Shown in pieces: positions 1,947 through 59,419 of a stretch of DNA of 64,000 nt. Under the pieces are notes generated by a model. The model had not been told where the DNA came from. It made no database searches and saw only the letters and a list, made by a program, of their open reading frames with translations. Both the position numbers and the translations under genes were made by a program. The stretch is from Malacoraja senta. Taxonomy: Eukaryota. Numbering within the stretch: position 1 is the stretch's first letter; every line of letters starts with the position of its first letter. Location: NCBI GenBank assembly GCA_038087875.1, contig CM075995.1, positions 10,852,001 to 10,916,000 on the forward strand, written 5' to 3'.

Positions 1947-4900
1947 TCAGAATTCTTCATCGACTCTTCCATCTTCACTTTCACCTTCTAGAAGCAAGCA
2001 TAACTTGATTATTGATCTTATAAAAACACTGGTTTTAGTTTAAAGTTGTACTGTGCGCACCAAACCCTTAAAATCAGGCATGATACCCAATATATAGTCC
2101 AAAACATAACAGCCCAAAGCTTTGATAGCATGAAACGTCTTCCTCCATGTCCAATCAACTCATGGATGTGTTGTAACAATAATGTTGAAGTGAAAAAATC
2201 CTTCGAGAGAACAACAGGATTTTTCGCAATAAAGTTCACCGTTAGGTTTGATTTAATTTCCGGATCATTGCCAGAGATTTCAAATCCCAGCTCAAGCTTT
2301 GGCCATTCTCTGTCTGGCTTAGAGAGATTTTAGTTCATTGATCCATCTCTTCTCGCTGAAAAAGCGGTTTGCCGTCAGTTCTCTGGAAACTTCTTCCACA
2401 GGATTTTCTTTTGTGTTAACATATTTCAGTTGTACAACATTATTACCTCCCAATACTCATTCCATTGGCAGATTGTCTCTGTCCAAATCCAACTCTCTGG
2501 TTTCTTTGGCTCTATCATCTAGTGGAATGCTTTCACAATTGTCACTGATCCACTTGGAAAATGTGAATCCTCCCTTATCGCAAAGGGAAGTCAGATGTTC
2601 TACTGGAAGAATTGCTTCCTGCTCAGTAGACGTAGATTTTCAACAATCATCCATGTTATTATTCTTCAAAGAGATTCTTACTTCATTTAATTTAGTATTC
2701 TCGCCAAACTTGCGTTTCAAATTCTGGATGCGTTGCTCTGCCATACGACGACTATTCGGTAAACTAACACTTTCTTGTTTGAAAGGTAAGTCCAGACAAT
2801 AGTGTCCATCAATCTTTACTGAGTAGTTCATAATATCCATGAACGTCAACTCTTCATTCGACATCTCTTCAGATTTCTTACTGGTACTTTCATTGAAGTC
2901 ATGATTGTATTGCTTCATCACCGGCTTTTCTAATTTAGCAGTAGATATTTGATTAACAGCAAGGGTAGGATAGTTCTTCTGATTCTCATTTTCATTATTC
3001 CTTTTCAAGGAGCCATAGATAACCCATCCAAGTCGGGTTTTTGGAGCAAATGGTTCATCACCTTGGCTCCTCACAATCTGTACAGGTTCCAATGCCTTCA
3101 AAACATTTGTTCCGATAAGTAGATCAACACTAGAATTTATTTCAGATATCTTGACATCCTTCAGGTAAGGCCATTGTTTCAAGTCTTCATGTCTTGGTAT
3201 ATTTTGACGACCAACAGGCTTGGTTCCATGTGTGAACACTTCAGATATTGGTATAAAATTATCTTCATCCTATCTGGATATCTCCATACTCGTAATGTAA
3301 TGAATCCTGCTCTCTTTATCTTTAATCATGGTACGTAATCGAATCTTAGTCTCTTCTACTGTGATGTTCAGCCTTCTTGTCAGGTTATCTGTGCAAAAGG
3401 TAGATGAACTTCCGTGATCCAGAAAAGCATATGTTTGCAACACTGTATTCGTCTTGCTATTCCTTACCTGTACTGGTAAGATAGAAAAATTACAAGCTTC
3501 AACCCTGGTCCCAATATGAGCAGTTACTTGAGGCGAGCTGATAGCATCTCTAGTAGTTGGCTTCTTCTTCGGTTCCGTTTGCTCCGGTTCATCCTCTTCT
3601 ATTTGCTCTGATAGCTTTTCATCTATTTGTTCCAGTTCTTCCTCTTCCCAATGCTCTAGTGGATTATTTTCAGTGTGAAGTGCTTCAGGATGATATTGCC
3701 TGCACTTATAACAAATTATAGGACTCCTACAGTCTTTCACCATATGTCCTTTTTGCAAACATCCAAAACAGATTCCCTTCTCTTTCAAGAAATCCATCTT
3801 TTCTTCATATTCTTTCAACTTGAATCTTCGACACCATCTTATGGTGTGACCAACTTCATCACATAACAAACAAAATACTAATTGCTTGCTAGTAGATACA
3901 TTTCCTTTCATTCTATCTGTCTTTTCCACAGGTCTGGTTGTGATAGCAAAACTATTTCTCATAGGTTCTGATATGTCTTCAGTTTTGGTAAAGGTAGAAC
4001 CTTTGTTAGTTGCAATCAGTTTATGATCTTCAATAGTCCCGTAGTGTGGCTCTAACATGTCCAAGAAATCCACCAGGTCTGATAGCCTGGCTACTTGGTT
4101 CCTCTCATCCAATATTTTGCCTGCTTTATCTCTCCACTTTTCCCTCAGTCTTCTGGGCAACTTGCTAATGATGACTCTAGTATTATTTGCAAGATTCATT
4201 TCTTCCATGTGGCCGAGATTTTTCATCGAGCTGCAACAACCTCTCAGAAATATTGTACATTTACTCAATGCCTTCCCATCTTCTGGCTTGATTTCTTTTT
4301 CAAGCATGGGCCTTCTCCATGTATGCGTTCGCAATCCTATGTTCATTACCAAAACGTTCTTTAAGTAACCTTCTCGCCCTTTTATAGCCTTGGCTCAGGC
4401 TCATTTTGACAACTTTCTACAAGTATCTGAACATCTCCGCGTGTGTACTTCACCAGAAATCGTAAGCGCTCCTTTTCATCCATAATTCTCGTTTCTAATG
4501 CTTCTTCTAATGCCCTTACAAAAGCTTCATACCGCAAAGGATCTCCATCATATGTAGGAATTTCTGCTGGTGGTAGAATGAGAGAGGTATTTTGTCGAGC
4601 TATGAACACGGCTTGACTTTTCACCAATGCCAATAATCCGTCCTGATAACCTTGGCTTGGCTCCACCTGTTGATAAACAGGCCTCTGTGACTCAATTTGG
4701 CCCGCTTGCGCCTGTGCCTCAGGCCTCGGAAAAGCGTGGTCCGCTATTGGTTTGTCCCGAGCATCTACAGACGCTCCATTAGTAGTTTGTTTCGATCTAG
4801 CACCCATTTGCTGAGATTAACTTTTACCCATCTTCCTCTGTTCCAATGGGTTTTCAAAGCCGGTGGACCTCGATTGTGGAATTGATCCAACTGCTGACTC

Positions 4901-5100
4901 ACTTGGAGCAGTTTTTATTCTTGGTCCAGAGCTCATTGTCTTCGATGATGTAGAGCTGCATCTTGAACCGTTTCTTTCCAATATCCCCTTTTTGCTTTGG
5001 CCACCGCCATCTTTGTGTCTAGTTCCAATTGTTCCTTTCGTTGCCTCAGCTCCTTTATCCTTGTTGCTCAATCTCATGTTTCTTCTTCACGGCATCCACT
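1947..5100 (-). mobile_element. Internally deleted BEL/Pao LTR retrotransposon (gag-protease present; RT and integrase core missing)
   Basis: Gag motif IPTYDGDPLRYEAFVRALEE; three zinc knuckles (CLLCDEVGHTIRWC, CFGCLQKGHMVKDC, CYKCRQYHPEALH); protease YAFLDHGSSSTF; DLLIGTN..KTRLGWVIYG; integrase N-terminus PVVL..HIHELIGHGG; C-terminal RSIIKLCLLLE. Several frameshifts. Confidence 0.9.
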
Positions 5101-5178
5101 TATAATGAGAGCACGGCCAGATCAGCTTCAACTCCCAATCGTGCAGAAGCCCTTGAAACCAAACTGGCTGTAGAACCA

Positions 5179-10659: not shown

Positions 10660-11523
10660 GAAGAACTTGGGGCAGTCAATGGAAGTGTCTTGAAAGCAGT
10701 CAGTGTTACCGTCGAAGAGGTGCTGAAGGTACTATTGTGTATGAAGGTAGACAAATCTCCAAGGCCTGGTCATACATATATATCCGAGGACATTGTGGGA
10801 AACCAGAGAGGAAATTGCTGGAGCCCTGGTTGAAATTTACGAGTTGGCTTTAAATACAGGAGAGGTGCCGGAAGACTGGAGAGTGGCAAATGATGTGTCT
10901 CTATTCACAAAGGGCTGCAGGGAACTATAGGCCAGTGAGCGTAACATCTGTAGTTGGAAAGTTACTAGAGGGCATTCTGACGGATAGTATACTTTTTCTC
11001 TCTCCCTCCCTTTTTAAAAAGGGAGGGAGAGAAAAAATGGGGAATTACAGACCAGTTAGTCTAACATCGGTAATGGGGAAACTGCGAGAGTCAGTTATTA
11101 AAGGTGGGATAGCAGCACATTTGGAAAGTGGTGAAATCATTGGACAAAGTCAGCATGGAACCTACGCTGCACTGCCTCAATCACAAGGATGTCCTTCCTC
11201 AAATTAGGAGACCAAAATTGTACACAATACTCCAGATGTGGTCTCACCAGAGCCCTGTACATCTGCAGAAGAACCTCTTTACTCCTATACTGAAATCCTC
11301 CTGTTATGAAGGCCAACATTCCATTAGCTTTCTTCACTGCCTGCTGTACCTGCATGCCAACTTTCAGTGACCGGTGTACAAGGACACCCAGGTCTCGCTG
11401 TACCTCCCCCTTACCTAACCTAACCCCATTGAGATAATAATCTGCCCCCTTGTTTTTACCGCCAAAGTGGATAACCTCACATTTATCTATATTATACTGC
11501 ATCTGCCCACTCACTCAACCTGT
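10660..11523. mobile_element. Mosaic of CR1 RT fragments (plus strand 10660-11158, minus strand 11159-11523)
   Basis: KVDKSPRP and GNYRPVSLTS motifs on plus; QMQYNIDKCEVIHFG...RPHLEYCVQFWSP on minus. Confidence 0.85.
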
Positions 11524-13045
11524 CTAATTACCAATCAAGCTGGCCACCTGTCTAATTGAAGGTCTTTGTTCACCAAGGAGCTTGATACAACCTTCAATTA
11601 ATTGCTGCCTTTTATCACTGGGCAGAGTCACTAACATGTGATCTGAGTTAATGGTGAAGCCCAAGTAATCAATAACTTTGACTGGTGTTAATTTGGATTT
11701 ATCTGCATGAATGATCAACCCCAATTGCTCAAAAGTGAGTTTAACAACTGAAACAGATGATTCAGCTGCATCCCGAGTCTTTCCTACAATTGAGATATCA
11801 TCTAAATAGGCCATTACAACATGACCCTGAGCTCGGAGTAGCCCTAGAACTGGTTTTAACAATTTGGTAAACAATCTAGGAGCTGAGATTAATCCATTAC
11901 GCAGTGCTTTGAATTGCCATAACTGACATCCAGCTAAACTTCAAATAACTCCTATCATCGCAATGAACAGATACTGAGTAATATGCATCTTTAAGATCTA
12001 TGCTTGCCATATAACACCCTTTGGAAATCAGCTGTTTAGCCGTAAGAAAAGTCTCCATTTTGAAATGTCTATACTGTACAAAAGGGTTAAGGCTCGTCAG
12101 GTCCAGAATGATTCTACATCCCCCATCCTTTTTAGACCTAGGAAATATATTTGACACAACCTGGTGGAGTTGACGAATCGACTTCTCAATCACCCCTTTA
12201 CTGCACAATACCTCAAGTTCTGCCTGTATCTGCATATTCTCTTCATGTGAGAAAACGAGTGTCCGACTTGGGACATGCTGAGTGGGTGGACACAAATTAG
12301 GGTAGAATGCAATTCGAAACCCTTCTATACTGCACAGCACAAACGGATCTGATGTTATCTCCTGCCATTCTTTTAGGAACAAGTGTAACCTGCCCTCAAC
12401 TTGAAAATATTTCCCACTTAATTTGATTCTATCAGCAGCAAAACCACTGATCTGCATGTTGGCCGATCGAATTTGTCGCCCCCTGCTCCTCGTGGGAAAA
12501 TTCATCCTTGCCCATGTGCCTGTGGCAGGGTGCCAGCTTCGTATGTTCGGGAATGAATGGCTCGTCCCTTCATCAGCCCCAGTCATTGCACCCCGTCGAT
12601 AGGGGAATTACCTCCGAACCATTTTGCTGCTCGTCGGCACTTTTATTCACCCCACAGTTTTCGCCTCATCATCAAGTTCTTTAACTCGCTTTGCGAGGTC
12701 CTCCCCAAACAGCAGATTAGGCAACTGAACATTGCTAGGTTTGCAGATCGATGCAAACTTAGGGTGAATATTTGGGCGTATGGCACTCTTTCTTAAGCAG
12801 TTCACCTCAAAATGTGGACTGCACAGAAGCCCAAAAGCATCCTGATGTGCTTCTGATACGTGCCCCTCGTCCACCATTCTGGCGAACGCAGTAATGCCTG
12901 CAGCAAGCAACTTCAGCACCCGCTGGAGTTTTAGCTTTTGTGCCTGAACTGCAATCCCCATTTGTCCCCATATAACATGGTTAACCACCGGCACCTTCAA
13001 TAAGGCAGTCAACCGGGGTTTCATACTTCTTTACAGTGTCATCCA
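11524..13045 (-). mobile_element. DIRS-type retrotransposon fragment (gag and RT), truncated at both ends
   Basis: RT motifs SNIFPRSKKDGGCRIILDL, HFKME, SIDLKDAYYSV, YLDD, YLGFTINS; gag-like ORF ending LLFGEDLAKRVKEL; disrupted by stops and frameshifts. Confidence 0.88.
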
Positions 13046-39239: not shown

Positions 39240-42202
39240 TTACAGTACTGCTGCATCACATGATTCCAAAAAGTCGATGAAAGGTGACCAACTCCTTAAG
39301 AATTGGTCATATTTATCTATTAGGCGGAGTCTCATTTCTTCTAGGTGTGCTATGTCCGTCATATTCCTAATCCACATTTTAATAGTTGGTATAGCTGTAT
39401 TTTTCCAAAATTTAAGTATCAATTTCTTTCCAATTATTAACCCATAATTAAAGAATACTTTTTGGTCTTTGTTTAAATTGCTATCTTCTAATATTATTCC
39501 AAATATAATCCATTCCATATTAGGTTCAATTCTTGACTTGAAGAGCTTTGTAAATATATCAAATATATCGCTCCAAAATGTATTCAACTTTGTACATCCT
39601 ACAAATGAATGTGTTATATTGGCATTTTGAAACAAACATTTATCGCATCTGGGAGAGACATTTGGGTAAAATTTATTCAACCTCGTTTTTGAATAATATA
39701 GTCTATGTAATAATTTAAATTGAATTAAATTATGTCTTGCATTAATGGAACAATTATGTGTATTCATCAGATACTTTTCCCATCTATCTTTCGGGATCTT
39801 TACCATTAGTTCATGTTCCCAATCTTCTCTTAGTGCCTCTGTTGAGGGTAATATTTAATATACTATTTAATATACTATTATAAAAATATGATATTAGTTT
39901 TTCTGAATCAGCCTTAATATTCATTGCTTCTTCTAAAGGGTCTAAAAATATAGTTTGAGATCTATGTATATATTTCTTCATAAAGTCACATATCTGTATA
40001 TATTTAAAATATTGATTATCATTCAGTTTAAATTTTCATTTAAATTGTTGAAATGATAACAATTTGCCCAGTTCATACATATCTCCTACTTTCCCAATCC
40101 CCAATCTATCCCATTGTTTATATGTTTTGTCGATAAGAGATGGTTTAAATGCAGGATTATTCAGAATTGGGGTTAATACTGATAGACTATTGAATTTCAA
40201 GGATAATTTTATTTGTTTCCAAATTCTTATTGTATTGTGAATAATTGGGTTCTTCTTATATATTATGCTATTCAATTTTATTGGTGAGAACAAGATCGTT
40301 CCTATATCGTACGGGAAACACTCCTCTTTTTCCATTCTTATCCACTCCGACTGGTGAGTTGAACTATCCAACCAGTACATTATGTTCTTAATATGCACTG
40401 CCCAGTAGTAATACGTAAAGTTAGGTAGTGATAAACCCCCAGCTTCTTTAGGTTTACACAAATGCTTTCGTTGAATTCTGTGTGCTCTATAATCTCATAT
40501 AAAATTAGTGATATTATAATCTAGTTTTTTGAAAAAATATTTCGGAATATATATTGGGATAGCTTGAAACAAATATATTAATTGTGGCAAGAAAGTCATT
40601 TTTATAGCATTAATTCTACCTATCAATGAGAGTGGGAGCGTTTTCCAAAATTTAATCATAACATTCAATTTATTTAATAGTGGCATAAAATTGGCGCTAA
40701 ATAATGATTTGTGTCTTCTCATAATTTGAATACCTAAATACTTGAATTTTTCTGGTGCAATTTTGAAAGGGAATTTTAATAAGTGTCTCGCATCCTGTGG
40801 TTTTAAAGACATGATTTTGCTTTTATTCCAGTTTATTCTATATCCTGAAAAAGAACCAAATTCCTCAATTAGTGTTAATAAGGTGGGAATACTCGTTTGT
40901 GTATTAGTAATATATAAAAGAATATCATCAGCATATAATGAAATTTTATTCTTTGAATCCTTGGTATTATATCCATGAATATTCGGATGATTTCTAATCC
41001 TTTCAGCCAGCGGTTCTATCATAAGGGCAAATAGCAATGGTGATAAGGCACAACCCTGCCTATTACCCGTTGATAAATAAAATTTTGAAGATAACATATT
41101 GTTAGTTAATATTCTTGCCGTAGGTTTATCATAAAGTAGTTTAACCCATCTAATAAAATTCTCTCCCGTATTAAATTTTTTGAGTACCTTATATAAATAC
41201 TGCCATTCTACCTGATCAAATGCCTTCTCTGCATCCAGCGTAACGACTGAAATATCTTCAATGTCCTCTTTGTGAGAGTACATTATATTGAAAAGCCTTC
41301 TCAAGTTATTAAATGATTGTCTTTTGGGTATAAATCCCGTTTGATCCGGGTTTACCAATTTATTAATATAATTATTCAGTATTCTTGCTAGAATCTTTGC
41401 TAAAATTTTCTGATCCGTATTTAAAAGTGATATAGCTCTGTAAGAACCCGGTTCATCTAAATCTTTATCTTTTTTTGGTATAAGCGTTATTGTTGATTCT
41501 GCTAAAGTTTCTGGTAGTTTATTTTCGGTATAAGCCTGCGTGTATAAGTTGAGTAATCTTGGTACAAGTGACTCCTGAAAGCGTTTATAAAATTCATTAC
41601 TAAAACTATCTGGTCCTGGGGTCTTCCCAATTTTCAATGAGTTTATTATTTGTTTTATTTCTTCACTAGTAATCCATGCTCCTAATTCCTCTTGTTCTAA
41701 ACTATCCAATTTAGGGAGGTTGCAAATATCTAAAAAAATTGTAATTTTACTATCATCTGTATTTATTTTAGTTGTGTATAAATTGTGATAAAATTGGGCA
41801 ATCCTTTTATTAATATCCTTAGGTAATGTTAGAAGCTCACCCTTATCAGATTTAATTTTAGTGATAGTATTTTCCTTTTCTTGTTGCCTCAGTTGCCTCG
41901 CTAATAATTTATGTGGCTTATCCCCAAATTCGAAGTGTGCCTGTTTTGTAATTTGGAATAGTCTTATTACTCTACCCGATAATATTCTATTGAGTTTGTG
42001 TTTCAATAAGGTTATCTTATTATGTTTATCTATAGTTGGGTCACTTGCATTGTCCAGTTCTAGTAATTTTATTTCCTGTTCTATCCTCTGAAGTTCTCTT
42101 TCATTTTCTTTATTTTGATAACTTTGATAAGAGATTATAACACCGCGAATGTATGCCTTAAAGGTTTCCCATAATAGCGATAAAGAAATACCCATTTGTC
42201 TC
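39240..42202 (-). pseudogene. L1 ORF2, RT and C-terminal part, disrupted
   Basis: SYRAISLLNTDQKIL, LDAEKAFD, GNRQGCALSP, YADD, RCDKC. Confidence 0.93.
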
Positions 42203-42408
42203 GAAAAAAAATTTATTCCGGTGGCTGCTATGAAGCAGTAAGACAGCTGCACAGAGCTCTGCTCCCGACAAATCGTGTATAAACTTGGTTCCTACGCCAG
42301 GATCGATTAAAAAACTCTTACCGGGATTGCTGAACCTCGTGGGTATTGATGTCATCAGATGGTGCTGGTGGAATCGGGATTTAAAACGATTTTACCGGTA
42401 AAAATCGG

Positions 42409-43524
42409 ATGAAAAAGGGAAGTGGTCAGAGAGGACACAAGAAGACTACAATCAGTCTCCAGCTCCAGCTCCAAAAAGCTCTGGATGAGCTTGAAACCAC
42501 TCCTGAATCTACCTTTGAAAGTTTGGAAGAGGAGCTGGAATCTCAACATCCAACAGTCGAAATGGCTGCAAGAGCTGAAACAAAAGAGTTAAAAGAAAGG
42601 GAGAAAGAAATGAAAAGCTGGGAAGAATCGGTAAGAGTTAATATTACTAAAGACATTACTAAAGATCGTCAGAAGCAATTTGCTAAAATGAATTCTACAA
42701 TGCAGAACAATTTTTCTTCAATGGAGGATAATCTCTCTAAGAAAATTGACACTAGCTGTGGAGAATTAAAGGAACTTTACGTATCCCTGAACCAGCAGTT
42801 CAAAGATTTGGAGTCGAGGACTGCTAAGGAATTGGAAAGAATGCAGAGAGATTATAACAATAAACATGACTCCCTGCTGAAGCAATTAACAAAGACGGAA
42901 AAATTGATGGAAGAGATGGAGGGTGAAATGCAGCAGATGGGCCAGGAAATAACAGGTTTCAAAAAAGAACACGACGCGAATTGGGAGCTGACGAATAAAT
43001 TGAATGAGAAATGTCAAGATTTGGAAGCTAGGTCAAGGAGGCAGAATTTGAGAATAATAGGAGTTAAAGAGGGGGCAGAGCACGGCTCTGAAATGGGTGA
43101 TTTTATCACTAATTTACTTAAAGATGTTTTCAAACTGCCAGAAAAAACAAAGATAGACGTGGCTCATCGTGTTGGTCGCTTCCAAAGAGGAGCGAATGCT
43201 CCACCACGTCAAATTATCGTAAAGTTCTTAGACATTTCGACTTTGGAAAATTTATTAAAGAAGATATCTTATGGAGAAAATCTTACATTCGCTGATAATA
43301 TTGTTAGATTTTACAGAGACTACCCTCGGGAAATACTGGCAAAAAGACGCCAGTTTAAAAGTGCAAGTAGTATCTTACAAGGACATTCTGAAGTTCGTTA
43401 CGGTGTTATCTACCTTGCTAAAATGTTAATTACGTACAATGCTAAGCGACGTTCATTCACGGATCCCGATTCAGCTTGCAAATATGCCCAGGAGATTTTA
43501 AATAAAATTCAAGGAAAAGAATAA
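42409..43524 (+). CDS. L1 ORF1p (coiled coil, RRM, CTD), open
   Basis: Coiled-coil region followed by DLEARSRRQNLRIIGVKEG, AHRVG, PRQIIVKF, FYRDY. Confidence 0.9.
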   Translation: MKKGSGQRGHKKTTISLQLQLQKALDELETTPESTFESLEEELESQHPTVEMAARAETKELKEREKEMKSWEESVRVNITKDITKDRQKQFAKMNSTMQNNFSSMEDNLSKKIDTSCGELKELYVSLNQQFKDLESRTAKELERMQRDYNNKHDSLLKQLTKTEKLMEEMEGEMQQMGQEITGFKKEHDANWELTNKLNEKCQDLEARSRRQNLRIIGVKEGAEHGSEMGDFITNLLKDVFKLPEKTKIDVAHRVGRFQRGANAPPRQIIVKFLDISTLENLLKKISYGENLTFADNIVRFYRDYPREILAKRRQFKSASSILQGHSEVRYGVIYLAKMLITYNAKRRSFTDPDSACKYAQEILNKIQGKE

Positions 43525-44452
43525 CGTGACACTACGCCGGCTGAACTTGTTTTTTACTTTGTTTAGACGGTTTTCAGACATACTTATTTGGCCAGAACGT
43601 GTTTTTTAATAACAGAGTCCTAACTTTATCTTGAATTGAAAAACTGAGGCTCAACAGATGGAATGTTCAAGGTCGCAGGCTCTGCGCCAAGTTTTTCAGC
43701 CCTGAGTTTTATTGACTGTTCTTTTTTGAATTTATAACAGTCTTGTTGGTCTGCCTTTGTCTTAGTACTATATGATCTATTATTTAGATATACAGCATAT
43801 AACTAACTAACTAATTAATTATATATACGCAATAAACTCAATTAACCCTAAAGGTTTAATGTATTATACTAACATGACTAACTATATAGTAGGAAGGATG
43901 GGGGAGGTTAGACAGATATTCTAAATACTAATTACGAATCAACTAACATACAGGCTAATGAAAAGTCTGATTAATGACGATAATAATTCTATTTTATTTT
44001 ATTGTAAATCTTCTAGCTTTTCTTCTACCATCAGACTGCTGAAGGAGCTTGGAATCCACGGTCAAGCTCTGCGGAAGACCATAAGATCACTCTCAGAGGC
44101 GGCTGAAAGAAGCAGCCGGTGGATTTGGCTCAAGCGGAAAGACCCATGCTGGGCCCCAAGTATGTCGGGGTGAATCTTTGGGACGGTTTGACACGGGACA
44201 TGCGCTGAGGGTTGATCATCCTGCAGCGGGCTGCCCTTGTGGAGGGTGTATAGTGTTAAAAGGCCGAAACACCCAGTGATGCAAGGGTACACTACTGATG
44301 ATGTGTCCTATGCCCAACTGTCCTGAAGGTTACCCCCCCCCCACCCCCCCCCCGATGTTGAGCGTCTACCACTCTCAACAATCAACGAATGTCGTGAAAT
44401 GCTCCCCACCTATTGGCACAAGGGACTTCTTAACATCTTGTCCTGTGTATTT

Positions 44453-47400
44453 TTTTTTTTTTTAATATATTTTTTATTTTTTAGAAGTACGGTAGATTAC
44501 AGTAATGTACAACACGTATATATTAATACATTTTTTGTACCGCTTCACTTTTTTAAACTTTAAGAAAGAAAAAGAAAGAAGTAAGAAAAGTGAAGAAAGT
44601 GCACAAAGGTTGTGAAGTGCAAAAGAGTGTTGGGAAAAGAAAGCCCCTTAGAAAAGAAGTTAGAGAAGGAAGTAAAGTTAGAAAATAGACCCTAGAAAAA
44701 AAAAGAGAAAGAAAGAAGGAACAATCGCTCTATTATAATTCTTATACCATACTTCATAGAGAAGGAACTACCAACCAAGTCTGTTTTTATTTTACCTCCC
44801 ATTACCAGGTCCAGATACCTTTTATTTATTTATTTGTTTTTCTAAATTACTATTGCACCTCATGCTTGTAATAGGTCCAAAAACGTAGACCACGTCTTTT
44901 GAAATTGATCTACTTTGCCTACTAGGAGGAATCTCATCTCTTCCAGATGTAATGTTTCCAACATATTTGATGTCCACATTTTTATTGTTGGTGTGGGCGC
45001 ATTTTTCCAGAATTTAAGTATAAGCTTTTTTCCCATTATTAGCCCATAATTGAGTAAATTCTTCTGATACACGTTTAATTCAGGAATACCTTCCGATATT
45101 CCAAAAATAATCCATTCTGGTTTTGGTACCAGTTTTATTTTGATTAATTTTGAAAAAATATCAAATATTTCAAACCAGAATTTTTGGATTTTTGTACAAA
45201 AAACAAAAGAATGTGCTATGGTAGCTTCTTGACATATACATTTATCACAGATTGGTGAGACGTTAGGAAAGATTTTATTTAGTTTGGTTTTTGAATAATA
45301 TAATCTATGTAATGTTTTAAATTGGATAAGCGTATGTCGTACGTTGATCGAGCATTTATGCACCTGTAATAAATGATTATCCCAACTCTCTTTTGAAATT
45401 TTTATACCTAGATCTTGTTCCCAATCTCTTCTAATTCCATCTGTTGTGGGTATTTCTATATTTAAGATGATATTATATAAGTATGATATTAAATTAACTG
45501 ATTCCGCCTTTGTCTTCATTGCTTCATCTAGTAAGTCGGAAGGCATATTATAATAATCTTTTGTGTGTGTTTTCAAATAGTCACAGATTTGTAGATATTT
45601 AAAATATTGATTATTTTTCAAATTATATTTCAGTTGTAGTTGTTGGAATGATAGTAATTTTTCTAATTCATACAGATCTTCGAGCGTTTTAATTCCCATT
45701 CTTTCCCATTGTATAAATGCTTTATCTATGATTGAAGGTTTAAACGATGGGTTATTGACTATTGGTATTAAGAGAGATAGGTTTCTTAATTTTAGATTCT
45801 GTTTTATTTGCTTCCATGTTCTAATAGTGCTATATATAATTGGATTTTTATTATAATTTTTATTATTCAAATTTATTGGAGAGAGAATAATCGCTCCTAT
45901 ATTATTCGGGGAGCAATCCCCTTTTTCCATTATAATCCAGTCCACCTGCTGGGCAGAATTGTCCAGCAGGTGAATCATATTTTTAATATTTACTGCCCAG
46001 TTATAATACATAAAGTTGGGGAGCGCTAGACCCCCCAACTCTTTTCGTTTGTTAAGGTGTGTTCTTTGTATTCTGTGGGATTTGTAATCCCATATAAAAT
46101 TTGTAATGTCTGAGTCCAGTTTTTTGAAAAACTTTTTTGGGAGATATATAGGTATTGATTGAAATAGGTAAAGGATTTGTGGCAAGAAAATCATTTTTAT
46201 AGCATTTATCCTACCTATTAAGGACATCGGAAGTGTTTTCCAAAATTTAATCAGATTATTTAATTTCTTAAGTAGGGGATTATAATTAGCTTTAAACATA
46301 TCATGGTAATTTCTAGTAATCTCAATTCCTAAATATTTGAATTTTTCCATAGCTATTTTAAAAGGGAATTTCCTGAGATGTGTTGAGTCTTTTGGTTTAA
46401 TCGACATAATTTCACTTTTGTTCCAATTTATTCTATATCCTGAAAAGGATCCAAAGTCCTCAATTAAGTTTAATATATTTGGTATACTAATTTGTGGTTT
46501 TGTGATGTACAGTAGTACATCATCAGCATATAGGGATAGTTTGTTGTTTGAATATTTTGTGTTATAACCGTGAATATTCGAGTGTGTTCTTATTTTTTCA
46601 GCAAGGGGTTCAATTACCAAAGCAAATAACAGCGGTGATAGTGAACATCCTTGTCTGTTGCCCCTAGATAATTCGAATTTTGAAGATAATATATTATTAG
46701 TTAGTATTCTAGCCGTAGGTTTGTTATATAGTAGTTTTATCCATGCAATAAAGTTTTCTCCCAATTGGAATTTTTGCAATACTTTGATCATATAGTCCCA
46801 TTCTACTTGATCAAACGCTTTTTCTGCGTCCAGTGAGATGATTGCTAACTCTTGGTCATCAGATTTATGTGAATGCATTATGTTAAGCAAACGTCTCAAA
46901 TTATTAAATGAGTGTCTCTTAGGTATAAATCCTGTTTGATCCTCATGTATTAGTCTACTAACATACTTGCTTAATCTATTGGCTAATGTTTTTGCTATTA
47001 TTTTCTGATCCGTATTTAACAAAGCAATAGCTCTATATGATCCTGGTTCTTCTATATTTTTATCTTTTTTAAGTATTAATATGATCGTTGATTCCGCTAG
47101 TGTTTCAGGTAGGTTTTGCTCTTTATAAGCATATGTATACATTTTTTGTAATCGTGGAGTAACTATATCATAAAAAGATTTATAAAATTCATTACTGAAT
47201 CCGTCTGGTCCTGGTGTTTTTCCATTTTTTAGTGTTTTTATTGTGTCTTCTATCTCCTTAGAAGTAATTTGTGCTCCCAGTTCCTCTTGTTCCCTGCGTT
47301 CTAATTGTGGTAGATTACAATTATCTAAAAATTCTGAGATTTTATTATTGTCTATTGACGTTTTAGATGTGTATAGATTCTGGTAAAATTGAGCAAATCT

Positions 47401-48071
47401 TTTATTAATATCCTTGGGTAGTGTTAATACTTCCCCTCTATCTGATTTAATCTTTAATATTGCATTCTCTTTTTCCCGTTTTTTAAGTTGTCGTGCTAGA
47501 AGTTTGTGGGGTTTGTCCCCGAATTCGAAGTGTTCTTGTTTTGTGATTTGAAATAATGTTATAACTTTCTCTGACAGTAATTTATTTAACTGAAATTTCA
47601 GTAGTAGTATTTTATTATGTTTATCCATAGTTGGGTCTTTAGCATTATCTATATCTAACTGTTTTATTTGATCTTCTAAGTGTCTTTGTTCATTCTTATT
47701 CTTTTTATTTTGATAAGCTTGAAATGAAATAATGACTCCTCTTATAAATGCTTTGAAGGATTCCCATAATAACGTGGGGGATATCTCTGGTGTATCATTT
47801 AACTCAAAAAATAGATCCATCTGTTTTTTTAGATAGATACTCCCTTGAGGGTCTTTTAAAATTTGTGAGTTAAACCTCCAGAACGGTTTATTCATAGACA
47901 TTCCTTCTAGTTTTAGAACAAAAGTTAACGGAGAATGATCTGAGATCGCATTAATATGATATTTAGGATTCAGAGATTGCGAAATTAATTTTGTATCCAC
48001 AAGAAAATAGTCTATCCGTGAATATGTTTTATGCACCATTGAATAAAACGAGTAATCCCTTCCCGTCGGGT
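44453..48071 (-). mobile_element. Second L1-like LINE, 5'-truncated
   Basis: Poly-A tail; 15-bp TSD ttgtcctgtgtattt at 44438-44452 and 48072-48086. Confidence 0.93.
44860..48039 (-). CDS. L1 ORF2p, uninterrupted 1059 codons, lacking most of the APE domain
   Basis: YSRIDYFL, SDHSP, PGPDGF, LDAEKAFD, GNRQGCSLSP, YADD, ICDKC. Confidence 0.93.
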   Translation of the reverse strand: MVHKTYSRIDYFLVDTKLISQSLNPKYHINAISDHSPLTFVLKLEGMSMNKPFWRFNSQILKDPQGSIYLKKQMDLFFELNDTPEISPTLLWESFKAFIRGVIISFQAYQNKKNKNEQRHLEDQIKQLDIDNAKDPTMDKHNKILLLKFQLNKLLSEKVITLFQITKQEHFEFGDKPHKLLARQLKKREKENAILKIKSDRGEVLTLPKDINKRFAQFYQNLYTSKTSIDNNKISEFLDNCNLPQLERREQEELGAQITSKEIEDTIKTLKNGKTPGPDGFSNEFYKSFYDIVTPRLQKMYTYAYKEQNLPETLAESTIILILKKDKNIEEPGSYRAIALLNTDQKIIAKTLANRLSKYVSRLIHEDQTGFIPKRHSFNNLRRLLNIMHSHKSDDQELAIISLDAEKAFDQVEWDYMIKVLQKFQLGENFIAWIKLLYNKPTARILTNNILSSKFELSRGNRQGCSLSPLLFALVIEPLAEKIRTHSNIHGYNTKYSNNKLSLYADDVLLYITKPQISIPNILNLIEDFGSFSGYRINWNKSEIMSIKPKDSTHLRKFPFKIAMEKFKYLGIEITRNYHDMFKANYNPLLKKLNNLIKFWKTLPMSLIGRINAIKMIFLPQILYLFQSIPIYLPKKFFKKLDSDITNFIWDYKSHRIQRTHLNKRKELGGLALPNFMYYNWAVNIKNMIHLLDNSAQQVDWIIMEKGDCSPNNIGAIILSPINLNNKNYNKNPIIYSTIRTWKQIKQNLKLRNLSLLIPIVNNPSFKPSIIDKAFIQWERMGIKTLEDLYELEKLLSFQQLQLKYNLKNNQYFKYLQICDYLKTHTKDYYNMPSDLLDEAMKTKAESVNLISYLYNIILNIEIPTTDGIRRDWEQDLGIKISKESWDNHLLQVHKCSINVRHTLIQFKTLHRLYYSKTKLNKIFPNVSPICDKCICQEATIAHSFVFCTKIQKFWFEIFDIFSKLIKIKLVPKPEWIIFGISEGIPELNVYQKNLLNYGLIMGKKLILKFWKNAPTPTIKMWTSNMLETLHLEEMRFLLVGKVDQFQKTWSTFLDLLQA

Positions 48072-48520
48072 TTGTCCTGTGTATTTGATTCTCCTTCTAG
48101 CTTTTCTTATATTTTATTTTAAATTTTTTGGCTATTAATCGACCTGACACGATAATTTTGGTTATAAGTGGAGGAAACCAAGTTGGATGATATTTTACTA
48201 GGGGGACAAAGCCCAGTGCATAATTCCATCGATGGAGGTCAATTTAAAACAAATCTTAGCCACCATAGGTGGCTTTTTTGTAAGATATCGCTTTTTTGAT
48301 AACTTACATTCACTTTTTTTGTTTATTCACTATTATGCGTTGTATGATATAACAATCTTTATGAACACTTCATTTTATGTTTTTCTTTTTCCCTTAATTA
48401 TGTTTAATAGTGTCAGGAGATGTAAAACTAGTGCAGAAATTATGAAGGACAACCCTGGACTCGGGATTTCGAGGTACTTGGCTGCATCACATGAATTATA
48501 CATTCTGGTAATAATAGCCA

Positions 48521-49345
48521 ATGCAAGATAATAGTCGAATAAACACCGGAGGTCTCACTTTTTGTAGTTGGAACATTAGAGGTGCGAATGAGCCAATTAA
48601 GAGGGGTAAAATTCTGGCACAATTAAAATCATTAAACATTGATATTGCTTTCCTACAAGAAACGCATTTGAAACAACAAACGCAGATCAGATTAAGGGCA
48701 AACTGGATAGGTCAAACCTACTATTCCTCATTCACTTCTAAAGCAAGAGGCATGGTCATTATAATTCGGAAAGGTATACCTTTTATATTAAAGAAGTCTA
48801 TATCTAATAAAGAGGGAAGATACATTATAGTCACGGGAGAAATTTACAATACACCATTAACTATGATAAATATTTATGCGCCTAATTTTGATAATCCCCA
48901 ATTTTTTAAGAAAATAGTAGATATAATTGCAGAGCATAATTATCAAAATATTATAATGGGGGGAGATTTTAATTGTGTTATAGACCCATACTTAGATAAA
49001 TCAATAAAGGTAGGGAAGCGTCTAGTTAAAACCAAGACCTGTTAATTTTTAAATACTTATATAAAAAATAATAACATAACTGACGTTTGGAGAATAGCAA
49101 ACCCAATTGGAAGCGAATATTCGTTTTACTCGTCGCCTCATAAAACTTATTCACGAATTGACTATTTCTTAGTGGATACAAAATTAATTCCGTATACAAT
49201 TAAACCATCATATCATAATAGTATTATTTCCGATCATTCACCACTGACTTTTATACTTAAAATCGAGGGAATGCCGGGTATAAAATCTTTTGGGAAATTC
49301 AACGCACAAATATTAAATAACCCGCAGGGTTATGAGTATATAAAG
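48521..49345 (+). pseudogene. L1 ORF2 APE domain of the inverted 5' half
   Basis: SWNIRG, LQETH, NIYAPN, GGDFN, YSRIDY, SDHSP; premature stop at 49045. Confidence 0.92.
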
Positions 49346-49512
49346 GTATCTTTATTTTACAGTCCGGATTTCCCAGAGCAAGAGACAGCAGTTTCAGTCC
49401 CGAATCTCCCAGTTTATTAATGCCCATATCCAACTCTGTCAGTGACTGGTTTGTGTTCAGAGCAGATGCAAGATCCTTGATGCAGGAAGATGTGATACCG
49501 CTCTTGTCCAGC
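49346..49512 (-). CDS. NLR LRR exon, interrupted (last 4 nt and donor at 38872-38863)
   Basis: LDKSGITSSCIKDLASALNTNQSLTELDMGINKLGDSGLKLLSLALGNPDCKIKI; 167+4 = 171 nt. Confidence 0.9.
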
Positions 49513-54190: not shown

Positions 54191-55899
54191 ATCAATTCCT
54201 GACACTTGTGCAGCCCGGGTCCCAGCTGTTGGAGTCCTTCATACTGAATGTTGCAGCTCTGTAGATTGAGGTGTTTTATTGCTTCACAGAATCCAATGAC
54301 ATGAGACAGGACTACACAGTCAATGGGGGTTAGTCGTAATCCACTGAACGAAAGGGTTTCCACAGATCCCAGTGCAGATCGTGTCAATTCGCTATTCTGA
54401 GACTCAAACAGGTAATGTATTCCGGAGCCTCCTTTTACCAGCTCCACTCCCTGAGTTTCCAATCTGATGTTCTACCTCATCCTTTACCCAGTCAATCACT
54501 CTGCAGATTGTTTGATGACAAAATGGACCCAACAACTTCCCCAGGCTTTGAGCTGACCCTGGAGAAGAGAGACCAGTGACAAAGCGGAGAAACACCTCAA
54601 ATCGCCCATCATCCTCGCTGTGAGCTTCAGTGAGGAGTTTCACAAGATCCCCGGGATCTGGAGACAGAAATTGTGCGAGTGCGGCTGCAAACCCTTGGAT
54701 GGTGAGGTGCGGGAAAGTGTACACCACACTCCGGGCAGAATCCTCTCTTTCCAACAGTTCCATCAAGAACCCAGACAGGAACTGGGATGGCTGCAGATTG
54801 TTCTTGATCAAATCCTCCTCTGTAAACACAATGGTCTTCTCAGACACTCCTGTGAAGGCCATCTGACCAACCCTCAGTAACACTTCACGGGGGTTGTCAA
54901 TCTCACGGACATGGTTTTGCAGGATGTTGAATATATAATGGGAATATAGTTGGGTGATGGTCTTGGGAACTCGTTTCAGGTCCCGTTGTCTTTGTGTGAA
55001 GAAGGGGCCCAGTGCCAGACCAAGGATCCAGCAGTAGGAGGGGTATAGCTCATGGTGTAAAGGATCTCGTTCTCCTTCACATGTTTGAAAACAGATGCTG
55101 CCACTGTCTGATCTTCAAAAAACATGGTGAAATATTTATTCCGTTCCTCACCAACAAATCCCAGGATTTCAGCCCAGATATTGATTTCTGCTTTTTCCAA
55201 TTGAAGCAACGCAGTGGGGCGGGTGGTCATGAGCACTGAACACCCTGGGAGCAGCTTGTACACAATGTCAGACACTTCACACCACCATTCGGGATCTGTG
55301 CACTTGTGCCGAGGTTCTGTGTCTCTCCGACTGTCAGCAAAATCAATTCTATCTTTGTATTCATCCAACCCATCGAATATAAACAGCAATACCTTTGGGT
55401 TCTTCCAGACCTCTCGCAGAATATTTTGGAGGTAAGGATATTGATCGATAATCAGTTCCCTCAGGTTTGTTCTACAGTTAATGGTATTCAAATCCCGGAA
55501 TTTGAAACTAAAGACAAATTGGAAGTGTTGGTGTATTTTCCCCGTGGCCCAGTCATAAACAATTTTTTGTACCATTGTCGTTTTTCCAATGCCTGGCACG
55601 CCGGCCACTGCTGCCGAACACCCAGATCTGGATTTACTCTGGGAAAAGCAGCTCTGGAATAATTGATTAGTCTGAATTTGTTTTAGTTTTCCCTGGAGAT
55701 GCATCTTTCTCCACTCCTCATGGTCCTGACCTCTTGCCAGCAGCTCATGTTCCATTAGTCTCCGATCTCGAAGAGTAGAAATGATAGTCAGATCAGCGTA
55801 TCGATCAACAAGCTGGAAAACCTTAACCTTCTCCCTCATCAGGATTGTACTCACTTTCAGTTTGGGCCTGCAGAGTCTGCTTATGCTTCTGTTGAACAT
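54191..55899 (-). pseudogene. NLR NACHT exon
   Basis: Walker A GVPGIGKTT, Walker B LFIFDGLDE, VLMTTRP, YTFPHLTIQ, FEVFLRF, YLFESQN; frameshifts at about 55858, 55044 and 54415. Confidence 0.95.
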
Positions 55900-56072
55900 C
55901 TTCAATGGGAAGAAGACAGTTTGCAGAGTTAGTTTCATGATGTAAGTAAAAACAATATTAGGTGCACTCTCTTTTTGCTATTCTTTCAATTGTGCTCCAT
56001 TCCTTTTAAAAGTGGAACTGGAGTACAGAAATTAATCCACCCCTGAAAAGCCAGCAACCTTTATATATGTGG

Positions 56073-56610: not shown

Positions 56611-56719
56611 TCACCGGGTATAAAAAGGATGAGTCATTGAACCAATTTGGGTTCTTATAGTATTCTCACCGGGTATAAAAAGGATGAGTCATTGAACCAA
56701 TTTGGGTTCTTATAGTATT
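56611..56719. repeat. Perfect 55-bp tandem duplication
   Basis: tcaccgggtataaaaaggatgagtcattgaaccaatttgggttcttatagtatt twice. Confidence 0.95.
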
Positions 56720-57551
56720 TTGCAGTATATATAATTAAGGCTTCAGTAAGTCGACTTGTTTGAGATACAAAGCACTGCTCTATGAGATGTTCTTTGTGTC
56801 TGTCCTATTCTAAGCCACAATTAAGAGGACAACTGGGCCCACATGGAAGCCAAATTCAGAGTACACAATTCTCCCCAACCACATGAACTGTAATAATTCC
56901 AGTGATCTCTCTTCTTTGCAACTCACATTTAAAATCACAGGATCTTATCATGAGATGTGCTGATGGCCCATGTTGCAAGGAATCATAAGATTTCCATCCT
57001 TCTTTCACACATTCTGTTAATCACTTGCAAGAATGAATTGGACTTCAAATATCAATTAGATTTCAGGCAATACAGAATTGGACAGGAATCAGACCACATC
57101 AATTTGGCTGGGACTGATTATCTCTCCTCCTTTCTGCATTCAGTCTGCGAATAGACAAGATTCTCACTGTAGTCTTATCAGTGCTAGGACCGATTATTTC
57201 TTGGATTGTGCATACTAAGTGAAATTTAAACCCAATCTAGTTATATAGTGCAGTGACAGATTGTACATTGACTGTGTTCACTGCATGTGGACAGGTTTTT
57301 CAATGTAGTGCTTTCATGATAGCACTTTCATGATGAGTCGGAAAATTCTCATATCAGTGCAAGGACAACCTATTAATGGGTTGTTGGAAAGGTGGGAATC
57401 TCACTGTGGCTAATCAGTGCAGGGCCAGGTTATCTGTTGGTCCACATTTACTGGGAATTGACACGGATATCAATATAACTACACCTCTACTGGTGAATTC
57501 TATATTGGATTGTATTGTAGTTATATCAGTGCTAGGACGCATTATACTTTG

Positions 57552-58781
57552 AATAAGCGAGTGTGGTATTCCAAAAAAATGCAAGGAATCATGGGATTTT
57601 TCAAAGGTCAAATGTTATAATGAAAAATCAGACGAAGCGCTGTTTGGGTCCGGTTTTTTGGTCTTTTTTCAAGCTTGTATTTGTCAGGGGGCAGATGCGA
57701 GTGGGAGACAGAGTGGGGAGATTGGACCAGTGGAGAGACATTCTCGGCAGCTGCACTCACACAGACTCGCCCCATCCCCCCCACTTGCGTGTCCCATACC
57801 CGTCCGAACCGACAGGACAACGGCCCCCAGGCCCACGACCAGTGCAAAGAAGCGCCAACCCCAGCTCCACTCCGCCTCTCCCGCCGGGCCAACCGACAGC
57901 CCCGGACCGACGACATTAACAGCCCCAGGCCCACAGTCAGCGCGGAGAACCCACAAGCCCACAGCCAGCGCCAACTCCAGCACAATCCCGCTCCAACTCC
58001 AGAGGAACCTGCTCCCCGGTGGGCCGCTATGGTGACAAGTGCCAGTTCGCCCATGGCCTGGCTGAGCCTCAGCCGCCACCCGAAGTACAAGACGGAGCCG
58101 TGACGCACTTTCCACGCCACCAGCTTCTGCCCCTACGTTACACGCTGCCACTTCATCCACAACCCCGAGGAGGAGCGAGGGCCCCGGCCTCGCCTGCGTG
58201 CCAGCCTCGGCTCGGCCTCCTCCGGCCCGGCGCTCGACTGGGCTTGGGGCTGGGCAAGGGACGGGGAGGAGGTTGCTGCTGCCGTGAGCACCACCATCAC
58301 TAACAGCACCAGCAGGCGCCCGGCCTGCCCATGGCCGTAAGTTGCCCATCCGCAGACTCTTTCTCTGACCAGGACGACTCCAGGAGCAGCGGCTCCGAGT
58401 AGCCCGTCTTAGAGCAGGGCCGGCGGCAGCTCATCTTCAGCAGGATCTCGGTGTCAGATTGAGGGGAGGGGGTGGAGGTGGAGGGCTCCCGGCCAACCCT
58501 GCGGGACAGGCAGAGCTGAGCTGGAGCCAGCGGCTGTAGTGCCGGCGGCAAGTCCGGGGCCGTCCCGCCAGCCCATGGCCACCCCGGACAGGGACGGGAC
58601 ACCCGGGAGGGGACGAGGACGGGGACAAGCCAACAGCAATTCAACAGCAGCCGGCGACCCAGGCCCGAACCCGGAAGAAACGCAAGGCTGCATACAACGC
58701 AGCACCACCGTTGCCGAGACTTTTTATAGCAAGTGACCTATGACCTGGGCATGGGCAGTCGGAATACCAAACTCGCTTATT
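57552..58781. mobile_element. Inverted-repeat-bounded element carrying a ZFP36-family fragment
   Basis: AATAAGCGAGTGTGGTATTCC (57552-57572) versus GGAATACCAAACTCGCTTATT (58761-58781), 20/21 inverted match. Confidence 0.75.
57735..58462 (+). pseudogene. ZFP36/TTP-family tandem CCCH zinc-finger pseudogene fragment
   Basis: [48 protein letters not shown]-terminal RRQL-IFSRISVSD*. First half of finger 1 deleted; frameshifts and stops. Confidence 0.88.
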
Positions 58782-59419
58782 GTGTTCACTGAGATAAGAA
58801 TCTGACAAGACTTATCAGTGTGGGCATACATTAGCTTTAGGATTTTGTGTACTGACAGACTGAGTGAATTTCCTGGAAGTAAATTGTGGGGGCAGGAATT
58901 CCTTCACGGTTTGATCTCAGTGTGAGTAGACAAGCGGAGACATGATGTAATCTTGAGCATTGGTTGCCACTGACTAACTAAACAGTCCACTATCTATGTA
59001 CAGTGCAATGTCATTTGGTTTGTAGAATGAACTACAAGAAAGTACAACAAAATCACAGAAAGTTCTCAGTGCAAAAAGAGACTGGTGCACTTTGTGAATT
59101 TGTTGAGCCTTTTGAATTACTTGAGTAAGAACAATCCACCAGGTCCCATTCCTCGCAATGCACCACATTATTTCCAGCTACCAGTGAATCTGCGGCTCCT
59201 GCACACCGCGGTGCATTGCGAACTTCAATATTCGCTACATAAGCGTTATTTTGGTCAGGTCATGCTGATTCCTTTGCCAATCACTTCCAGTTTCTGACCG
59301 CCTTACTCTATCACCCGGCTGGTAGGTTTTGTTTTCCTGTTGATCCATTCGGTACAGACCTGTCATGAATTAATATATTTTGCTCAGATTCCCCCGCAGC
59401 TTCTGTTCTCGTTGACAAG

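Follow-up and report, generated by a model that had tools for sequence, protein, structure and literature searches.

How did part of a host gene for an mRNA-decay regulator, ZFP36/tristetraprolin (TTP), come to lie between inverted repeats close to an NLR exon in the genome of the skate Malacoraja senta? In the 64,000-nucleotide stretch of DNA analyzed here (hereafter the window), an initial annotation had read a GC-rich CCCH zinc-finger relic bracketed by 21-bp inverted repeats as a piece of a host gene captured and moved by a non-autonomous DNA element. Coordinates are those of the window, and all parts of the element are described on its plus strand.

Ends, interiors and cargo of the element

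The reported repeats, at 57552-57572 and 58761-58781, are indeed complementary at 20 of 21 positions when compared within the window; they are the sole sites there with three or fewer mismatches, against none in 100 shuffles, and 300 block shuffles of the region produced no pair of 20/21 quality. The outer three bases of each repeat are most likely target DNA (AAT...ATT), which refines the ends to 18-bp terminal inverted repeats (TIRs) with 17 of 18 positions matching and the element to 1,224 bp (57555-58778) within an AATT site. The left TIR, identified by the repeat search and the shuffles, spans 57555-57572 and the right one 58761-58778. Outside them stand the remnants of the target: AAT at 57552-57554, consisting of A and one copy of AT according to the junction readings and to a gap-free comparison of the rebuilt site with the repeat unit at 57168, and ATT at 58779-58781, most listed loose ends of other copies starting behind 58781 in all four of the runs described below. 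GC content is 65-70% in the interior of the element vs. 39-43% in the flanks. The subterminal motifs noticed earlier are likewise in place, AGGTCA at 57605 and TGACCT at 58734 and 58741. The left end segment (57555-57610) terminates in AGGTCA (57605-57610) and is common, as judged from the motif and from contigs, to sister forms that continue differently, while the right end segment (58732-58778), with both TGACCT motifs and the right TIR, is common to forms with other interiors, as judged from the motifs and from contig joints.

Between these ends, the left interior (57611-58018) is GC-rich and not ZFP36 coding sequence, with no match to the host N terminus and no Pfam family at cut-off; it contains an internal duplication of ~100 bp (57825-57863/57923-57961) and has a counterpart in a Leucoraja protein, P0169. 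The right interior (58463-58731) has its counterpart in a second Leucoraja protein, P0188, at 58486-58727; its start may be host 3' UTR, and neither an AU-rich element nor a poly-A signal or poly-A was found in it. An Rfam scan returned one chance match only (E 0.49), no second copy was found within the 64-kb window, and exact matches to the TIR numbered zero in metagenome contigs, a collection unlikely to include skates.

Enclosed by the two interiors is the ZFP36/TTP-type cargo (58025-58462), which in a frameshift-aware alignment corresponds to residues 121-289 of the skate protein XP_078287002.1 (P0004) and runs from the second half of finger 1 through finger 2 and the C terminus to the stop codon, residues 1-120 being absent. 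The 5' capture junction (58019-58024), placed within finger 1 by protein comparison, reads GTG GGC. A zf-CCCH match (E 4e-5) and best PDB matches to ZFP36L2 and TTP bear out the zinc-finger identification. With X at its breaks, the cargo is identical to the skate host proteins P0004 and P0005 at 120 of 140 residues (86%), vs. 76-78% for ray-type proteins (n = 3), 64% for a shark protein and 50-64% for other vertebrates. Unlike the skate host gene (XP_078287002.1, XP_055519735.1 and XP_032870229.1), it is broken: stops stand at 58101, 58301 and 58400, one of them at the first Cys of finger 2, frameshifts lie near 58067 and 58242, and deletions are found at 58067, 58199 and 58242. The cargo of the window copy is dead and nonfunctional. 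Poly-A, a poly-A signal, an AU-rich element (ARE) and a 7-bp direct repeat were all looked for around the cargo and found absent, and a processed retrocopy with a poly-A tail and direct repeats of its own was accordingly rejected.

The tree with host ZFP36 relatives that the initial annotation had called for comprises 28 rows hand-picked from 120 matches listed, with elasmobranch L1/L2 and certain mammalian TTP absent. In it, the cargo falls within an elasmobranch, non-Tis11B clade (100/99) and apart from the 11 rows featuring PF04553, the Tis11B N-terminal domain of L1/L2 (100/99); its grouping with the skate proteins is weak (90/60). A Pfam scan found PF04553 absent from P0004 and P0005 as well. 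Because elasmobranch L1/L2 are absent from the tree rows, we infer rather than assert that the parent, compared as protein only, was of TTP type rather than L1/L2; RefSeq names of these orthologues vary. Since the cargo has skate-only indels in common with the skate host proteins and retains, behind finger 1, an ancestral Ala that is replaced by Ser in the host genes of Leucoraja and Amblyraja, the capture was probably later than the skate-ray split and earlier than the Ala-to-Ser change.

Insertion site, neighborhood and class of the carrier

The insertion target is a degenerate ~60-bp flank repeat (57168-58843, repeat family D1) of near single depth in the four runs. Removing the element and leaving one AT gives TTTGAATTGTG, which aligns gap-free, at 42 of 56 positions, to the repeat unit at 57168. 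The earlier reading, in which either AT or nothing was duplicated, stands insofar as these two cuts yield an identical, gap-free empty site, but it had overlooked a third possible cut, in which TA is duplicated and a 2-nt gap is needed against the same unit (score 57 vs. 63). AT was apparently duplicated in an AATT site, the evidence being modest (63 vs. 57) and dependent on one degenerate repeat unit because no true empty site was seen: in the contigs of the four runs the flanks are not common to NLR paralogues at ≥80% likeness.

On the minus strand, Pfam matches and reading frames place the NLR NACHT exon at 54407-55977 (54200-55977 at its widest), with frameshifts near 55040 and 54420. Its NACHT frame (54979-55977) matches PF05729 (E 3.5e-33) and lies 1.6-1.7 kb from the element, with the cargo antisense to it, in agreement with the ~1.7 kb and the orientation first described, and ordinary repeats occur in the interval. 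The exon is likely a pseudogene. Since it is itself frameshifted, its adjacency to the element is probably incidental, and where genomic copies of the element are so numerous, the presence of one beside an NLR calls for no particular explanation. We also weighed a regulatory link to the NLR, which is unsupported, given the two frameshifts and the flanks not shared with NLR paralogues at that likeness. Nearer the element, 56611-56719 holds a perfect 55-bp tandem duplication, and 56750-56838, with a summed depth of 260-885 in all four runs, is another repeat at the flank edge. Farther away, reverse-transcriptase and adjoining frames at 11500-13030 (minus strand) are presumably a DIRS-type retrotransposon remnant, and gag/protease-like frames at 2640-4820 (minus strand) are taken here for a BEL/Pao LTR element remnant. 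On both strands of 39240-49420, which includes 1078 open codons at 44863-48096 (minus) and a presumably ORF1-like frame at 42385-43521 (plus), we assume several L1/Tx1-like pieces.

As to the carrier, neither a transposase nor an autonomous partner was found by a six-frame Pfam search of both non-cargo interiors, which gave two weak matches only, below cut-off, or by HMMER with the right-interior frame, whose one match, a tandem-repeat protein, was rejected. Among the kinds of transposase considered, PHIS/ISL2EU is the most likely, at slightly less than an even chance; an enzyme that makes no duplication or is unclassified follows at roughly a third of the weight, and a TA-type Tc1/mariner enzyme carries about a fifth. 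ISL2EU elements are described as having AAT on the left and ATT on the right, an A|AT|T target and TIRs of 6-259 bp (PMC4482050), and the skate element is alike: the A|AT|T geometry fits here and ATT is kept at most listed other ends, although the TA and no-duplication cuts also fit. ISL2EU termini are usually GG/CC in the same description, whereas those of the skate element are AA/TT and it has no DDE/THAP or YqaJ frame; since GG is only usual, the AA termini are not decisive against ISL2EU. In the parts of these sources available to us, ISL2EU is given as not detected in elephant shark (PMC9179366), and Leucoraja figures in the PHIS supplement in the genome list only (PMC4482050).

Were the carrier instead of Tc1/mariner type, an element of 57556-58777 would sit in AATATT with TA duplicated, and the same capture and amplification would hold. 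TA does directly abut both sides under this cut, TcMar elements have expanded in skates to 3.28% of the genome according to PMC12361510, and 115 of the 370 known Pack-TIRs are given as TcMariner in PMC8277862. The cut nevertheless brings the 2-nt gap against the repeat unit, with 5/14 vs. 9/14 in register, and TT beyond TA is kept in most listed other copies, which would need an unusually strict target; we regard a Tc1/mariner origin as unlikely, if the strongest of the rivals weighed here. The initial annotation had also suggested a Crypton-like carrier, that is, a tyrosine-recombinase element (57554-58779) inserted into AA|TT without duplication, and such a cut does give the same empty site as the AT cut, the two being indistinguishable at AATT targets. 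Later Crypton groups have inverted ends. Cryptons are, however, described without TIRs and with terminal direct repeats of 4-6 bp (PMC3212892), whereas the element has TIRs and no such repeats, and because AAT/ATT is in addition a signature reported for ISL2EU (PMC4482050), the suggestion is not supported and appears improbable.

Two further classes were tried and rejected. Spy elements are described with an AAA|TTT target and GGANNNNG termini (PMC4122938), neither of which is found here, the site being GAA|TTG. The loose-end consensus behind 58781 starts with A or C, not with Spy's T, in the best 24 of 2102 rows. Helitrons and Helentrons have asymmetric ends with a 3' hairpin; the terminal repeats here are symmetric, and the end folds give z values of 0.85 and -1.13.

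Dispersed copies in four organisms and in skate gene models

Assembled contigs from 4 of 22 runs (X1, X2, X3 and X6; four organisms, four studies) were aligned at 80% likeness, and X1 may be the window's own source sample. The 22 listed runs include none of RNA, which has no bearing on expression. Each run gave 3730-5142 contigs on the examined stretch. Relative to a flank depth near single (medians 14-28 across the four runs), summed depth is 116-530x at finger 2, 13-509x at single cargo positions and ~3000-3800x in the right-end bin. Because summed contig depth overcounts and is not a copy number, and because the ends are common to cargo-less forms, tens to hundreds of cargo copies per genome is a rough figure; the ends are more abundant. 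Loose ends behind 58780-58783 occur in at least 231, 226, 317 and 352 contigs per run, which may include left ends and cargo-less forms. In the best 24 of 2102 rows they agree at 0.33-0.38 only and hence run into unrelated DNA, their mode falls behind 58781, so that ATT is kept, and no loose ends are seen at the left end, 57552.

Contigs diverged by 11-14% span the boundary of left interior and cargo (X3 record 20; X6 records 26 and 27) or that of cargo and right interior (X1 record 6; X6 record 29), and X6 record 30 leads from 58566 through the TIR into foreign flank. Orthologous flanks differ by 3-7%, and the diverged contigs are, on sequence divergence, to be regarded as paralogues; letters deleted at 58199 in the window copy are still present in other copies. 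It is important to note that the parts of a second copy are linked through contigs and protein models that overlap in a chain, with no single record reaching from TIR to TIR. The left junction is bridged at the orthologous locus in organisms C and D, and the insertion in the window is therefore old; in the organism B orthologue, only 26 letters at the right junction fall within the element, too few for us to count a bridge there. Every run has C>T and G>A among its most frequent changes.

In X2, at least 43 contigs exit the element behind 57610, a joint 57610>57686 is seen in all four runs (best 15 of 420 joints), and in X2, X3 and X6 at least 48-76 contigs pass from other sequence into the element at 58732, which suggests that the ~50-bp ends bounded by AGGTCA and TGACCT are units common to subfamilies. 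The joint 57753>58732 and the entries at 58732 further suggest forms that have these ends but no cargo. Within the left interior, a joint going back by 101 is found in three of the four runs (best 15 of 420 joints). Some observations concern the make-up of the family: a joint 58159>58419/58422, which links the end of finger 2 with the C-terminal motif, marks a common internally deleted subfamily in all four runs. In organism B (X2) only, summed depth rises to 71,000-86,000 at 57907-58084, several times the adjoining bins, and this excess may be a satellite or second repeat derived from the element interior. In organism D (X6), the left-end bin (57551-57639) is ~19x shallower than the right-end bin, against a ratio of ~1.3-1.5 in the other three runs; per this end ratio, subfamily make-up differs between species.

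The cargo-less forms would also be expected if a ZFP36 retrocopy had later inserted into an ordinary MITE at the window locus. Apart from its first codons, the TTP coding region lies in a single exon, so that the intronless and 5'-truncated state of the cargo, which might otherwise speak for such an origin, is uninformative. Besides the missing poly-A, poly-A signal, ARE and direct repeat, the 5' junction and both interiors are met again in diverged copies as well as in two gene models of Leucoraja, making a local retrocopy very improbable; the one founding capture may have included an RNA step. As anticipated by the initial annotation, the same ends are thus found with many unrelated flanks and other copies share the cargo junctions, which supports its central claim that part of a host ZFP36 gene was taken up and carried along by a non-autonomous DNA element. 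The two outcomes it had held against itself, a later retrocopy in a family otherwise devoid of cargo and termini confined to this locus, are contradicted, as other copies do carry the cargo, the cargo is without poly-A or repeat of its own, and the termini recur. With a multi-copy family common to several organisms, the case for capture is stronger than first supposed.

The two gene models are from Leucoraja erinacea. In XP_055505784.1 (P0169), the left interior (57800-58014) precedes the fingers (best E 5e-8), and XP_055493223.1 (P0188) starts at the window's capture junction and continues through the right interior to 58727 (E 1e-9); the other 220 of the 222 proteins tested have no match to the non-cargo interiors. 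The contigs that bear these models measure 139.7 and 88.0 Mb, and the host gene sits on a 12.4-Mb contig. Judged by their sequences, both RefSeq "ZFP36-like" models are to be seen as copies of the cargo-bearing element annotated as genes. At the junction, the window reads VGRY, P0188 MGRY and P0127 MGCY, while P0169 has LPDG vs. LPGG in the neighboring frame of the window. P0127, a Logan protein, has element-like first residues at the capture junction followed by a near-perfect host protein tail; it is most simply an assembly chimera and would otherwise be a copy, young or converted, whose frame is open.

At 58019, where the window reads GTG, an in-frame ATG is implied by P0188, P0169 and P0127, so that a truncated protein may have been encoded by an open frame in the founder. 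The same ATG, and the inclusion of the full C-terminal motif at the end of the captured part, could also be taken to mean that the element arose by deletion from an endogenous virus or a larger autonomous element in which a truncated ZFP36 served as a working accessory gene, as in Teratorn, which is reported to carry a ZFP36-like gene (PMC5601938). Such a derivation is doubtful: the cargo has its place in the tree with the skate host gene, whose skate-only indels it shares, finger 1 is halved in every copy seen, three protein searches yielded no open element-borne frame except P0127, and the ends are not piggyBac-like (TTAA, CCYT) in the sense of PMC5601938. A protein search for relatives of 48-156 residues gave two candidates, neither significant, and the scores of 0.75-0.76 from an Atlas search with the N terminus of P0169 were uninformative. 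The C-terminal motif of TTP binds CNOT1. More speculatively, and with little weight, the founder would have encoded from its own ATG a truncated TTP of ~170 residues with one whole CCCH finger and the C-terminal motif, its frame, or RNA from its many copies, would have been kept for an effect on ZFP36-dependent mRNA decay in the host or on element silencing, and the carrier would belong to a PHIS-type lineage with non-GG ends that is not reported from cartilaginous fish.

Capture, amplification and significance

In light of these results, the locus is very probably a decayed copy of a skate family of non-autonomous TIR DNA transposons that captured part of a host gene of ZFP36/TTP type and was subsequently mobilized in trans, with the cargo a passenger and the proximity to the NLR incidental. 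We propose that an ancestral element would have acquired ~440 bp of the host gene, from mid finger 1 to the stop codon, at the DNA level, presumably through template switching during repair or replication, along the lines of gap-filling and of FoSTeST, both put forward as models for such captures (PMC8277862). The chimera, furnished with both ends, would then have been moved in trans by an AATT-targeting, AT-duplicating transposase, its cargo traveling as a passenger, and the copies would later have decayed through transitions and internal deletions.

TIR ends on both sides of the piece, a traceable host parent and cargo copies at different sites place the element, on sequence grounds, within the Pack-TIR definition; its targets are like those of ISL2EU, of which it would be only a candidate member. 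As in the animal Pack-TIRs surveyed in PMC8277862, TIR ends surround captured host sequence with an identifiable parent, and as in the multicopy ones, the copies are dispersed away from the parent. That survey reports four multicopy Pack-TIRs (1.4%) among young elements of 100 animals, its frog examples having 3-5 copies; 13.4% are exonic, most are hAT or TcMariner, elephant shark has none, and no skate appears in its text or 12 supplements. The skate family differs from these in being old, in its coding cargo and in its tens to hundreds of copies (a rough figure), and since the survey as presented targeted young cases only, old amplified ones may be missed by design. Plant Pack-MULE/Pack-TYPE elements (PMC8903248) are likewise non-autonomous TIR elements that multiply coding fragments, with 36% of the rice Pack-type elements multicopy (PMC8277862), whereas the skate family has a vertebrate host and is without the long MULE-type duplication. 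Teratorn, a piggyBac-herpesvirus fusion of fish, is the only ZFP36-bearing mobile element found in our literature search and like the skate element a DNA transposon, but it is described as 180 kb long, autonomous and TTAA-targeting, with viral genes (PMC5601938), vs. 1.2 kb, a truncated host piece and no viral or transposase gene here. The same search found no ZFP36-carrying element in sharks or skates and no family with these ends; Repbase and Dfam, outside its scope, may name the family.

The element is a real, amplified Pack-type capture in skates, and its relatives form an old multi-copy family of Pack-TIR type. Multi-copy capture of coding sequence by TIR transposons is common in plants and reported as rare and low-copy in animals (PMC8277862); here it reaches tens to hundreds of copies, as a rough figure, in a vertebrate lineage, with an immune and mRNA-decay regulator as cargo. 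The element also explains why skate annotation contains spurious "ZFP36-like" gene models, two or more of them in Leucoraja, and its shared insertions are markers for skate phylogeny. The family further suggests that cartilaginous fish have an unclassified transposase with AATT as its target, and offers a testable system in which small RNAs against the parent gene and the effect of the cargo on mobility can be addressed.
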